The position numbers and the translations under genes are program-made. A DNA stretch of 64,000 nt from Escherichia phage vB_EcoM_Lutter. Under the pieces are notes generated by a model. That model was given only the letters and a program-made list of their open reading frames with translations. It was not told the origin of the DNA and did not search any database. Positions 20,468 through 45,100 of this stretch are shown piece by piece; the stretch's first letter is position 1, and each line of letters begins with the position of its first letter. The stretch lies in sequence record NC_054924.1. One strand, given 5' to 3'.

Positions 20468-20995
20468 TTATGCGAGTACCGTCTTTAACCGTTCTTCAAA
20501 CTTCCGAAGAGTATTCTGGCGTTCAGCTCTTTGCTTTTTGTAAGTTTCAATACGCTCTGAAATGAGAGTGTATCGTTCATTTACTGATTCTTTCATAAAA
20601 TCAGGAATTTCACGAGAAGATTTAATCTCGTCAAATTTATCAATAACAGCTTGCTCTTCAGCAATTAAGTTATCATACATCAAAATATCTTTCTTGATGA
20701 ACTCAATATCTTCTTGAGTTACACGAGATAATTTAGATGCTTTATCCTTTTTGTACTGTTCATTAGTATCACGAGACCAGTGTAATGTACGATTTTTATT
20801 CGTATTTTTGTAAATTTCTACAATACCGATCTCATCAATAATAACGATCCAATTCCAACGAGATTTGTAAATTTGCCCTCCATCAACCGTGATTTCACCT
20901 CCGATTGAGATGTCATTAAAGAACTTGCTTTGTGCTTCAGATTTAAATTTACCATCATTGTAGTTTACCAAGTTGAAAATATCTTTAGCATTCAT
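20468..20995 (-). CDS. hypothetical protein; start trimmed to MNAKDIF
   Basis: Track ORF reads through the promoter motif; GGAGG ribosome-binding site before ATG at 20995. Confidence 0.5.
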   Translation of the reverse strand: MNAKDIFNLVNYNDGKFKSEAQSKFFNDISIGGEITVDGGQIYKSRWNWIVIIDEIGIVEIYKNTNKNRTLHWSRDTNEQYKKDKASKLSRVTQEDIEFIKKDILMYDNLIAEEQAVIDKFDEIKSSREIPDFMKESVNERYTLISERIETYKKQRAERQNTLRKFEERLKTVLA

Positions 20996-21023
20996 TTTCT
21001 GTTCCTCCGTAGTTGATAGTTGT

Positions 21024-21052
21024 ATAGTACCACAGAGGAACGGTCTTGTAAA
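21024..21052 (-). promoter_or_regulatory. early promoter
   Basis: TTTACA-17-TGG-TACTAT, then conserved ACAACTATCAAC. Confidence 0.6.
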
Positions 21053-21055
21053 CAA

Positions 21056-21370
21056 CTAAAAGAAACTTCTTTCACAATTTTTTCCACTGAACCACGCGCT
21101 CACTGCTTTCTTAGTCTCAGGAGCAGTGTTATCCATAAACCATTCAAAGGCAGCCTTTTTATGATTCTGGAGAGCTTCTCGGGCTTTAATCTGCTCACGG
21201 TCTATTAACACTAACATATGAGCCTTTCTTGTCACCAAGGGCTTCTTATGATTCTTGGAGTATTCCCAGTCATTTGTCCAACGCATTGTCGTTGCGAACT
21301 GATGAACCGCGTCTTTAATTTTAGTTTCGTAAATTTCACGAGCCTTTGAGTATAACATCACTACCTCCAT
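21056..21370 (-). CDS. hypothetical protein (104 aa)
   Basis: ORF. Confidence 0.5.
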   Translation of the reverse strand: MEVVMLYSKAREIYETKIKDAVHQFATTMRWTNDWEYSKNHKKPLVTRKAHMLVLIDREQIKAREALQNHKKAAFEWFMDNTAPETKKAVSAWFSGKNCERSFF

Positions 21371-21459: not shown

Positions 21460-22428
21460 TTATTTCAGAAGAGTAACCTCAGCGATTTCTTGCCAACCGT
21501 TTTTGTCGGTCATAATAAAGTCAGCAAGATAAAGTGCAGTACGCAGTGAAACATTGCGTAAACGGTTAACATTGACTTTCATCCATGATAATGCTTTATA
21601 AGTTTCTTCATCAGAAAGACCGCGCTTTTGCATCATGTCGGTTGAAAGAATAACATCTTCAACCCTGACCATAATTTCTTCATTAGTGTGAACACCCAAA
21701 TCTAAATAAACTGAGCGGGACACTAACGCTTGTAAGTGTGGGGCAAGTTTAGTACCACGGTCTAATTCGCGGTCAATGTCAACGTTTGTGATAAAAACAA
21801 TCGTTCCTTTAAATTCAAACTCACGCTCAATGTCTTTTTCTTCTAAGTAAGAAGATGCAGTGCTCCAGCAGACTTTACGGGTCTCTCCGGTGTCCAGAGC
21901 GGCTTTTAGAAGATTAAGAATGTCCATATCAGAGAAAACATCCACATCATCAATCAAAAGGACAGAATTCTCTTCACGATTATTCCAGAGCTGTTCATAA
22001 AGACCAATACCAGAGATTTTACCGTTAATGCTTTTATATTCAATGTATCCATTATCATTTGCTTTATTCAAAGCTTTATCTAAAGAATACGTTTTACCAA
22101 TACCCGCCGCACCAGAGATAATTAATGAACGAATGTTTCCGTTAATAATACCATTCGTCATCATTCCCATAACATTAAATCTTTTATTAATGCGGGTTTT
22201 CATATCTTCATATGATTCTTTAACTTCTTCAACTTTTACACCATCATATGAAATGTCTGATTTGTAAACCCAAACACCGCGACGTTTACCGTCAATTTCA
22301 ACAAAAACTTTACCATCTCCTTGTGCATCTACCGGAGCATTATCTGGGAACCATTCGCCTAAGAGCTCAAAAGTTCCAGAGATTTCTTTACCGAAGTAGA
22401 TACCCTTATTGATAGTTACAGTTTTCAT
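21460..22428 (-). CDS. P-loop ATPase (AAA-like); start trimmed to MKTVTINKG
   Basis: Walker A GAAGIGKTYS, Walker B VLLIDDVD. Confidence 0.6.
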   Translation of the reverse strand: MKTVTINKGIYFGKEISGTFELLGEWFPDNAPVDAQGDGKVFVEIDGKRRGVWVYKSDISYDGVKVEEVKESYEDMKTRINKRFNVMGMMTNGIINGNIRSLIISGAAGIGKTYSLDKALNKANDNGYIEYKSINGKISGIGLYEQLWNNREENSVLLIDDVDVFSDMDILNLLKAALDTGETRKVCWSTASSYLEEKDIEREFEFKGTIVFITNVDIDRELDRGTKLAPHLQALVSRSVYLDLGVHTNEEIMVRVEDVILSTDMMQKRGLSDEETYKALSWMKVNVNRLRNVSLRTALYLADFIMTDKNGWQEIAEVTLLK

Positions 22429-22462
22429 TTTATTCTCCAAATCCGTATCAGTTGATAGTTGT

Positions 22463-22491
22463 ATAGTACCACAAAGCTCTATGCTTGTAAA
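22463..22491 (-). promoter_or_regulatory. early promoter
   Basis: TTTACA-17-TGG-TACTAT; follows a terminator hairpin. Confidence 0.6.
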
Positions 22492-22511
22492 CAATTTTGT
22501 GAAAAAATTTT

Positions 22512-25999: not shown

Positions 26000-26027
26000 G
26001 ATGTTCTCCTCTTTATCCGATAGTTGT

Positions 26028-26056
26028 ATAGTACCACAGCTCAAACGGAAAGTAAA
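26028..26056 (-). promoter_or_regulatory. early promoter
   Basis: TTTACT-17-TGG-TACTAT; follows hairpin 26074-26089. Confidence 0.6.
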
Positions 26057-30215: not shown

Positions 30216-30242
30216 GTTATTCTCCTCTTAACTGATAGAAAA

Positions 30243-30271
30243 ATTATACCACAGTCAAGAGGAAAAGTAAA
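30243..30271 (-). promoter_or_regulatory. early promoter upstream of regB
   Basis: TTTACT-17-TGG-TATAAT. Confidence 0.65.
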
Positions 30272-30274
30272 CAG

Positions 30275-33768: not shown

Positions 33769-33795
33769 AATTTCCTCCAAGTAGTTGATGAATGT

Positions 33796-33824
33796 ATAGT
33801 ATCAAAACCCTTGGAGGAAGTAAA
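33796..33824 (-). promoter_or_regulatory. early promoter upstream of denV
   Basis: TTTACT-17-TACTAT; spacer holds the arm complementary to the denV ribosome-binding site. Confidence 0.6.
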
Positions 33825-33827
33825 CAA

Positions 33828-38459: not shown

Positions 38460-38490
38460 GTTGTTTTCTGTATCAGTAGTTGATAGTTGT

Positions 38491-38519
38491 ATAGTACCAT
38501 GGAAGAACAGGGATGTAAA
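38491..38519 (-). promoter_or_regulatory. early promoter
   Basis: TTTACA-17-TGG-TACTAT. Confidence 0.6.
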
Positions 38520-42709: not shown

Positions 42710-42737
42710 TTTATTCTCCTCAGTAGTTGATAGGGTA

Positions 42738-42766
42738 ATAGTATCACAACTAAAACCCTATGTAAA
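42738..42766 (-). promoter_or_regulatory. early promoter
   Basis: TTTACA-17-TACTAT flanked by inverted repeat ATAGGGT/ACCCTAT. Confidence 0.6.
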
Positions 42767-42779
42767 CAACTTTGTGAAA

Positions 42780-43037: not shown

Positions 43038-43066
43038 TTTATTTTCCTAATTAATTTTGATGAGGT

Positions 43067-43095
43067 AATAGTATCACTACCTCATCAGCGTGTAA
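43067..43095 (-). promoter_or_regulatory. early promoter upstream of ipI-like gene
   Basis: TTTACA-17-TACTAT flanked by inverted repeat GATGAGGTA/TACCTCATC. Confidence 0.6.
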
Positions 43096-43109
43096 ACAAC
43101 TTTGTGAAA

Positions 43110-43807: not shown

Positions 43808-44520
43808 TATAGTACCTTTAGTGTATTTTTAATTTTAGAAAAAAGTTCTTCAAGAGAACCATCGTTTGTAATTACTAAATCGCCATTACGAATTGGCAAT
43901 CCAGCTTCTGTAATATGAGTATCATTGGATTTTTGACCAGGACGAACTACATGAATTACTGTAGCACCCATCGCCCTAGCCGCATCCATTTCATGATCTT
44001 GACGAGTATCAGGAACGATATAATAATCATAACCTGAGTTAAATTTATCAAGATAATCTAAAGCAAATAATTTTACCCAATACATGCGGTCGAAGTTATT
44101 AACAATCAAATCCGTACCTAGGGCTTGCATCAGACGACGGACTGACCATTGATCTTCAATATTATTTATAACGTCAGCAATCTTGTTAAATGCTACGAAA
44201 TTAACTGCGTCATCAAAAACAAACACACCTTTAATTGGGCTTTTACTATTAAGATAGCAAAATGCTTGTTCCATAATCGTAATTACTTCTAATTTAGTCA
44301 GATTTAAATTAGTTTCACGATCATAGTCAATTCCTTCAAACTCTTTACGAGTTAAACAAGGATAGTCAGTGTTTGCTGCAAATACACCCCATGCATAAGC
44401 CAATGCATCCTTAATAGGACCAGCAAGTTGATATTTAACTGCAGAATAATTATTCATAATAAAATCTGCAGTAGTATCTTTTCCACTACGCTTTACACCA
44501 CTTAAAAAGATTAGTTTCAT
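43807..44520 (-). CDS. 1: deoxynucleoside monophosphate kinase gp1
   Basis: 237 aa; P-loop GVKRSGKDT. Confidence 0.85.
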
Positions 44521-44569
44521 ATGTTTCTCCTCAAATTTAGTTAAGATTATAACACATGAAACTGAAGCA

Positions 44570-45100
44570 TTAAACTTCTGCTATAATTTTTCCATCTTTT
44601 TCTACTTGAAAATACGTATAAGGAATCGTTGCTGTGCATACTAAGGCTGGGTCTGAATCTTCTGTGTAGCTAAATTCTACTTCAGACAGGTCAGAAACCC
44701 AGGGCTTATAAAAATTTATTGACATCACGATTTCAGTTTTACTATTATCTAAAATGTAAAGCGTAATGTATTCAGGACCTGTTTTTTGGGCAGTATTTTC
44801 GCCTGTAAGATAGTTACTAGTTCCTAGCATCCATTCATACATTCCTATCCATGACTTAAGCTCTTCATCAACTATAAATCTCACGATGAGTGGGTCGTAC
44901 TCAAATGTAACACCTGGACGTTGTGCTCGGCCTAGTCCAAACGGCCCAGTCACGGTATCAGTAACAGGTATCCTAATTCCCGGAATAGGAACTGACTGAG
45001 CATTTAAAGTAAAAGCAGATGTAGTATTACTATGCGGTATTGATACTACAAAGTTAGTTGTATTTGCTTGGTTAAAAATTTGTTGTAGTGCTTGCGACAT
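44570..45100 (-). CDS. 3: tail completion / sheath stabiliser gp3; start trimmed to MSQALQQ
   Basis: 176 aa from ATG at 45100; T4 gp3 length. Confidence 0.8.
   Translation of the reverse strand: MSQALQQIFNQANTTNFVVSIPHSNTTSAFTLNAQSVPIPGIRIPVTDTVTGPFGLGRAQRPGVTFEYDPLIVRFIVDEELKSWIGMYEWMLGTSNYLTGENTAQKTGPEYITLYILDNSKTEIVMSINFYKPWVSDLSEVEFSYTEDSDPALVCTATIPYTYFQVEKDGKIIAEV

Follow-up and report, generated by a model that had tools for sequence, protein, structure and literature searches.

Does it matter for the translation of a phage gene at which promoter its RNA began? The question is raised by the start of nrdC.8 in Escherichia phage vB_EcoM_Lutter (NC_054924.1), of which a stretch of 64,000 nucleotides (the window) was analysed. 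An earlier note had pointed out that gttcctc at 21001-21007, at the GGAGG site of the transcript, is complementary to gaggaac at 21035-21041 in the spacer of the gene's promoter. The complementarity is present. The minus strand reads GTTCCTC at 21041-21035 and GAGGAAC at 21007-21001, and the nrdC.8 promoter, with one partner in its spacer, and the Shine-Dalgarno (SD) sequence GGAGG, held by the other partner, are as described.

The window belongs to a T4-type phage of the genus Tequatrovirus. Its best match is vB_EcoM_F1 (98.9%), and about 500 records match it at 95-99%. The local genes are oriented on the minus strand. The putatively gated start belongs to the ortholog of T4 nrdC.8 (20468-20995, 175 amino acids), a protein that matches phrog_2274 (unknown function) and has no sequence match in Pfam, NCBIfam or PDB. 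Its upstream neighbour is nrdC.9 (21056-21361, minus strand, DUF7203), from which read-through RNA would enter; the nrdC.9 stop codon, TAG at 21058-21056, lies just 5' of the nrdC.8 -35 box. Further upstream are nrdC.10 (21460-22428, minus strand) and nrdC.11. In many deposited genomes the orthologs of nrdC.6 to nrdC.10 are labelled 'thioredoxin'. The label has no Pfam or NCBIfam support for nrdC.8 or for nrdC.9 and seems to have been carried over from the name of the adjacent nrdC gene.

The nearest upstream source of potential read-through RNA is the early promoter of nrdC.10 (22463-22492, minus strand), which shares an identical 24-nt -10/leader block with the nrdC.8 promoter. A consensus scan finds no terminator-like site between the nrdC.10 promoter and nrdC.8; the sole one nearby, at 22540-22521, is upstream of the nrdC.10 promoter. 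The fPS-65 annotation places predicted early promoters at both corresponding positions, as well as a predicted middle promoter just 3' of nrdC.8. The latter matches a MotA-type middle promoter, GCTTTA-N12-TATAAT, at 20465-20442 (minus strand) between nrdC.8 and nrdC.7. With its own early promoter on the 5' side and the middle promoter of the next gene on the 3' side, nrdC.8 therefore forms a one-gene unit.

The nrdC.8 promoter was called from the consensus, from conservation across genera and from the fPS-65 annotation. Its -35 hexamer, GTTTAC (21053-21048, minus strand), follows the T4 early consensus (TTTACA at 21052-21047). The extended -10 element, TGgTACTAT (21032-21024), consists of the TG at 21032-21031 and TACTAT at 21029-21024, and is a hit of the consensus scan including the TG. 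In an alignment of Tequatro-, Mosig- and Dhakavirus sequences the -35 hexamer is invariant and TGnTAYTAT is conserved in three of three genera. The leader CTATCAACTAC is likewise invariant, while the spacer varies. Transcription is predicted to start at about A21017, placed by the usual distance of 7 nt.

The spacer and the ribosome-binding site form the two arms of a hairpin. In both the minimum free energy and the centroid structure of RNAfold, the 5' arm GUUCCUCUGUGGU (21041-21029, minus strand) pairs with the 3' arm ACUACGGAGGAAC (21013-21001), which contains the SD GGAGG at 21008-21004. The helix comprises 13 contiguous pairs, including one U·G and one G·U; the 7-bp pairing first noticed is thus real but understates its length. 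The loop of 15 nt (21028-21014) holds most of the -10 box, the predicted start and a portion of CTATCAAC, a conserved leader. Read along the coding strand, the order is GTTTAC (21053-21048), aagacc, GTTCCTCTGTGGT (21041-21029), the rest of the -10 box, acaactatca, ACTACGGAGGAAC (21013-21001), agaaa and the ATG at 20995-20993. The 5' arm and the -10 box share one base, 21029, the last of the arm and the first of the box; any start from the gene's own promoter therefore excludes this arm.

The predicted folding differs strongly between the two kinds of RNA. A read-through RNA of 76 nt folds with -20.8 kcal/mol (z = -3.66), and one of 200 shuffled sequences folds as well. The RNA that begins just 3' of the -10 box has 0 kcal/mol and no structure. 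To open the ribosome-binding site (from -14 to +5 relative to the AUG) takes 15.7 kcal/mol in the read-through RNA vs 2.1 in the short one, an extra predicted cost of 13.6 kcal/mol; at three control promoters the corresponding values are 0.7-5.4 and 0.3-4.2. The nrdC.10 promoter shows no SD-sequestering fold (z = +0.94). The sense strand folds more stably than the antisense strand both at nrdC.8 (-19.4 vs -14.9 kcal/mol) and at regB (-22.4 vs -12.5), as an RNA structure with G·U pairs should. The stem is not an intrinsic terminator: the consensus scan finds none, and the tail AGAAAAUG has one T in the 8 nt after the stem, vs seven for the terminator after nrdC.11. A search of Rfam with 20800-21300 gave no match at E <= 1.

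We consider it likely, on the strength of these folding models, that the hairpin acts in cis and ties nrdC.8 translation to the promoter of origin. RNAs that begin at the early promoter of nrdC.10 or at a more distant upstream promoter presumably exist in some amount and would carry both arms. Once the 3' arm is transcribed, 21041-21029 would pair with 21013-21001 and bury the GGAGG, and 30S subunits would bind the read-through RNA poorly. RNAs from the gene's own promoter would begin in the loop at about 21017, without the 5' arm, and would be translated from an open leader of 22 nt. Synthesis of nrdC.8 would thus follow its own immediate-early promoter and be insulated from upstream transcription. 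Several points speak against this mechanism, among them the comparative record of nrdC.8 given below. The nearest upstream promoter is also early, making a temporal benefit less obvious than in the late-promoter cases described below, and CCUC-type spacers pair with almost any SD, so that some complementarity comes cheaply.

The specificity of the pairing was assessed for 17 early-type promoters in the window that lie at most 65 nt from an SD and start codon. The interaction free energy was defined as G(up+down)-G(up)-G(down). Over all promoters, its mean is -7.13 kcal/mol for cognate and -4.84 for non-cognate combinations (permutation p = 6e-5). The nrdC.8 promoter, at -15.5 kcal/mol, ranks its own leader first among the 17, and shuffling of the spacer alone gives p = 0.002 for this energy. 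The pairing probability of the SD was rejected as a statistic. It saturates, with 0.471 for cognate and 0.468 for non-cognate combinations and 0.3-0.77 for shuffled upstream segments, and is uninformative because any CCUC spacer pairs with any GGAG. What carries the signal is how long and how stable the cognate helix is, not SD pairing as such.

Four promoters are outliers at -15 to -20 kcal/mol: nrdC.8, regB (start 30215), denV (33768) and gene 1 (44520). Each prefers its own leader above all others in its row, with p values of 0.002-0.004 in the spacer-only shuffle, and the read-through folds of regB, denV and gene 1 have z = -4.1 to -4.6. In the other early regions of T4 (1-50 kb and 142-169 kb), 20 further promoters yielded motB.2 (-20.0) and ndd.4 (-16.6; both p = 0.005). 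The design is thus found at about 6 of the 37 promoters surveyed in the window and T4; it is recurrent, not general to early promoters. A literal search for perfect repeats of at least 7 bp between spacer and ribosome-binding site, with shuffled controls, returns 3 of 34 promoters, vs 0.40 with shuffled spacers (P = 0.01) and 0.61 in non-cognate combinations, and the three are exactly nrdC.8, regB and denV, the cases originally named.

The regB helix is the strongest of its type (-23.1 kcal/mol, z = -4.6). Bases 30266-30249 (minus strand), in the promoter spacer, pair with 30238-30220 over the SD, the site as a whole spanning 30220-30272. Here the helix may gate translation in addition to self-cleavage. 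At denV, a perfect 10-bp repeat, TTCCTCCAAG at 33819-33810 and CTTGGAGGAA at 33781-33772 (minus strand), connects the spacer to the SD (site 33772-33825). At gene 1, which encodes a dNMP kinase, 13 bp between 44563-44551 and 44525-44513 (minus strand, site 44513-44575) cover the AUG. A MotA box, TGCTT, precedes the TATAAT of the embedded promoter by 12 nt, so that this promoter looks like one of the middle class. The gene upstream is the late gene 3, and the helix would therefore block translation from late read-through RNA. AAUCUUUUU follows the helix, which might attenuate transcription as well.

Some of these promoter cassettes are paralogous. The T4 ndd.4 cassette (166749-166807 of T4) is a close copy of that of nrdC.8, and in JS10 the cassettes of regB (10016) and denV (12304) have nearly identical promoters and leaders. 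Spread of cassettes or gene conversion therefore ties these occurrences together; they are not independent inventions. Three stem positions differ between T4 ndd.4 and nrdC.8, and all three are C-G/U·G exchanges that keep the pairing. A related observation concerns the block TGTGGTACTATACAACTATCAACT, which in early promoters extends over the -10 box and the initial bases of the transcript and is present four times on the minus strand with 0-3 mismatches (21011-21034, 22450-22473, 26015-26038 and 38478-38501). Its leader motif YTATCAAC is conserved across three genera. The block may reflect homology of PeSL cassettes (see below) or a function of the initial transcribed sequence.

We also scanned all 104 gene starts in the window for helices between the upstream and the start region, taking -14 kcal/mol or lower as strong. 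Strong helices occur at 6 of 15 promoter-associated starts vs 2 of 89 others, and at a threshold of -12 the enrichment has an odds ratio of 11 (Fisher test, p = 0.001). The same scan recovers two positive controls, the known late-promoter hairpins of endonuclease VII (gene 49; 14097, minus strand, -15.3 kcal/mol) and lysozyme (gene e; 34594, minus strand, -12.6), both of which are present in this phage. The second start at or below -14 outside the promoter-associated set is that of gene 55 (-18.8), where the helix leaves the SD uncovered. An inverted repeat upstream of gene 55 (start 7990), ATAGATCT at 8046-8039 and AGATCTAT at 8019-8012 on the minus strand, encloses a TATAAT at 8025-8020.

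A different arrangement is seen at two other early promoters, at about 43040-43097 and 42712-42767 (minus strand), where the spacer pairs with positions +1 to +10, not with the SD. One repeat, GATGAGGTA/TACCTCATC, precedes a gene for an internal head protein; the other is ATAGGGT/ACCCTAT. An inner hairpin of the RB69 nrdC.8 promoter is of the same type, and these pairings look like a second class of promoter-spanning hairpins.

Comparison across genera gives a mixed picture for nrdC.8. By tblastn the gene is confined to Tequatro-, Mosig- and Dhakavirus, and the eight related loci in IMG/VR fall in the same three clades, so that deeper phylogenetic sampling of the site is not possible. The 13-bp core does not vary in the T4 clade and hence shows no covariation; two positions at the base of the stem vary in all four combinations, one of which extends the helix to 15 bp. 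Dhakavirus (dhabil, AnYang, PSD2002) has a different helix, in which the spacer sequence UCUCCAGUAG pairs with CUACUGGAGG over 11 bp (-19.4 kcal/mol, z = -2.9). JS10 carries one mismatch in this Dhakavirus-type helix (z = -0.8). In RB69 the SD is only weakly paired with CUUUUAGU, which belongs to the end of nrdC.9; this pairing stacks on the inner hairpin of spacer and -10 box. In the swap test, in which promoters and leaders of different clades are combined, the RB69 interaction is weak and non-specific (-8.6). The nrdC.8 helix is therefore not kept everywhere.

Comparison gives stronger evidence for regB, denV and gene 1. For regB, the T4 clade has the arms UUUUCCUCUUGACUG/CAGUUAAGAGGAGAA, RB69 has TTCTCCTCTAGTTG/CAACTAGAGGAGAA and JS10 has ATCTCCTGTAG/CTACAGGAGAT. 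At denV, TTCCTCCAAG/CTTGGAGGAA are replaced by TCTCCTGTAG/CTACAGGAGA in JS10. At gene 1, AGTTTCAT/ATGAAACT give way to AGCTCCAT/ATGGAGCT in RB69, where codon 2 changes from Lys to Glu and the promoter spacer changes to match. In the swap tests for the three genes, the promoter of each clade prefers its own leader; for regB, the diagonal values are -19.3, -16.4 and -11.1 vs -5.9 to -10.3 off the diagonal. The arms at regB, denV and gene 1 thus show compensatory evolution across genera. The swap test was used in place of column-wise covariation counts, which were dropped since MAFFT shifts the arms (2-3 orthologs, with indels between the arms).

Other readings of the helix have to be weighed against a translational gate. 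The one that survives best is a shield against the nuclease RegB, in which pairing of the GGAGG would protect long RNAs from cleavage and promoter-proximal RNAs would stay cleavable. T4 nrdC.8 is one of two 'moderately cleaved' sites among 68 intergenic GGAG/U motifs tested in vivo, and RegB requires the GGA to be unpaired (PMC1702504); moderate cleavage would be compatible with RNAs of which some are open and some paired. The SD of regB is itself a RegB cleavage site (PMC3014915), and this gene bears the strongest helix (-20 kcal/mol interaction). The nrdC.8 site GGAGGAACAGA, however, differs from GGAGRAYARAA at several positions, and this could by itself account for moderate cleavage. The denV SD resists RegB owing to its 3' context and becomes cleavable once this context is replaced, the gene 1 helix covers an AUG and not a GGAG, and the late-promoter analogues act after the RegB targets are gone. 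We regard the shield as an unlikely explanation, although it could plausibly act together with a translational gate, the two not being mutually exclusive.

Less probable still is that the helix is a by-product or tool of a PeSL cassette, its stem-loop attenuating or terminating upstream transcription or serving as a DNA recombination feature, with the overlap of the SD incidental. The cassette is indeed a repeated family: the 24-nt block occurs four times in the window, and T4 has the ndd.4 paralog. Moreover, stem-loops in RB49 and phi1 are often found between -35 and -10 or over part of the -10 box, and one of them is a strong terminator in a reporter (PMC2839356). At nrdC.8, however, no U-tract follows the 3' arm (one T in 8, vs seven in 8 after nrdC.11), and at nrdC.8, regB, denV and gene 1 alike the 3' arm is always the translation start region. 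The G·U pairs and the more stable sense fold point to RNA, not DNA. The nrdC.10 copy of the cassette, which already has an upstream terminator, is without the helix, and the published stem-loops of T4 and PST sit upstream of the promoter (PMC4122927).

Translational coupling would mean that ribosomes finishing nrdC.9 open the helix, so that nrdC.8 is translated from long RNA only when nrdC.9 is. A ribosome with the nrdC.9 stop codon in its A site would reach only to about 21046. The window has 14 nt between the stop (TAG 21058-21056) and the 5' arm (from 21041), which puts the arm beyond this reach, and the same geometry holds for Dhakavirus. The idea also leaves the promoter in the loop unexplained. 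In RB69 the SD partner CUUUUAGU contains the nrdC.9 stop and must be melted by the terminating ribosome. Coupling is thus rejected on geometry for the T4 clade and possible in RB69; as an account of the helix it is highly improbable.

Chance complementarity of a pyrimidine-rich spacer and a purine-rich SD, without function, is largely refuted and has very little probability left: the SD pairing probability is equal for cognate and non-cognate pairs and high even with shuffled upstream segments, the excess in the literal 7-bp test is modest (P = 0.01) and RB69 lacks a specific helix, but the 13 bp reach well past the SD core, the spacer shuffle (p = 0.002) and permutation (p = 6e-5) disagree with chance, helices are enriched at promoter-embedded starts, and both arms change in compensation at regB, denV and gene 1, with a different helix in Dhakavirus nrdC.8.

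A hairpin that makes nrdC.8 translation depend on the promoter of origin remains the reading we prefer. The observation of the earlier note is confirmed, and its interpretation is partly supported. It had counted nrdC.8 as the third of three independent cases that make chance unlikely. Chance is indeed unlikely (p = 6e-5 in the permutation, P = 0.01 in the literal scan), but paralogy of the cassettes means that the cases are not fully independent. The proposed general mechanism, separating promoter-proximal from read-through expression, agrees with the computed opening costs (15.7 vs 2.1 kcal/mol), the enrichment at promoter-associated starts (6/15 vs 2/89) and the compensatory changes; its generality is limited to about 6 of 37 promoters, and for the effect on translation we infer it from folding.

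If the helix works in this way, the promoter spacer would be under dual selection, for DNA spacing and for RNA base-pairing. T4 would control some immediate-early genes, including RegB and DenV, by the origin of their transcripts and not by transcript abundance, RNA-seq would over-estimate the expression of these genes from long transcripts, and the distinction between immediate-early and read-through expression in T4 would gain a testable handle. Some PeSL cassettes would carry their own translational insulator besides a promoter, and such a cassette could be inserted in a new transcription unit without a change in its expression. A broader possibility, which we put forward tentatively, is that in roughly every sixth early or middle cassette of T-even phages the promoter spacer serves as a translational insulator, each spacer co-evolving with its own ribosome-binding site. 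Genes including that of RegB would then be translated only from their own promoters. Because RegB cuts only an unpaired GGAG, the proximal RNAs alone would be both translatable and destroyable. The result would be a sharp pulse of immediate-early expression, and some of the reported mismatches in timing between T4 mRNAs and proteins could be explained in this way.

Several known systems can be compared with this arrangement. The RegB targets of T4 early leaders (GGAGRAYARAA, PMC1702504) resemble nrdC.8 in that the GGAG of its 3' arm is moderately cleaved in vivo. The site GGAGGAACAGA matches the A-rich 3' part of the consensus only partly, and the helix differs in being a cis structure and not a nuclease recognition element.

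The likeness to PeSLs (PMC2839356, PMC4122927) is closer. These are cassettes of an early promoter with leader, SD and ATG, repeated in hyperplastic regions and accompanied by a stem-loop. The sequence pattern, TTTACW-N17-TAYWAT with SD and ATG in repeated copies, is found at nrdC.8 (TTTACA-N17-TACTAT), and the T4 ndd.4 region, which carries the paralog of the nrdC.8 cassette, is a PeSL example of Comeau et al. Arbiol et al. described stem-loops between -35 and -10 in PeSLs of RB49 and read them as terminators; translation is not discussed in this 2010 paper (PMC2839356). The stem-loops of PeSLs are terminators or attenuators that exclude the SD and, in T4 and PST, lie upstream of the promoter. 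The nrdC.8 stem, in contrast, spans spacer and SD and has no U-tract, and thus lacks the features of a PeSL terminator or attenuator.

The closest relatives are T4 e, soc, 49 and I-TevI. It is experimentally established that folding of their long RNAs conceals the translation start, whereas RNAs from a promoter inside the hairpin, without the 5' arm, are translated (PMC3014915). At nrdC.8 the helix likewise includes the SD (GGAGG, 21008-21004), the predicted promoter is inside the hairpin with its own transcripts lacking the 5' arm, and gene 49 and e of the window score in our scan in the same way. An early-promoter version is not described in PMC3014915, PMC2988021, PMC1702504, PMC2839356 or PMC4122927 (a mention in the 2003 T4 genome review of Miller et al. 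or the 1994 T4 book is possible), and the same five papers do not describe the co-evolution of spacer and ribosome-binding site or the occurrence at regB, denV, nrdC.8, motB.2 and ndd.4. The nrdC.8 promoter differs in being a sigma-70 early promoter, GTTTAC-N18-TACTAT, and not the late TATAAATA, the promoter embedded at gene 1 is of the MotA middle type, and at nrdC.8 the spacer of the promoter doubles as the 5' arm. Late-only expression is not what this arrangement predicts; the gene should be expressed from its own early promoter alone. The principle is thus already known in T4; here it would be combined with an early promoter, or at gene 1 a middle promoter, instead of a late one.
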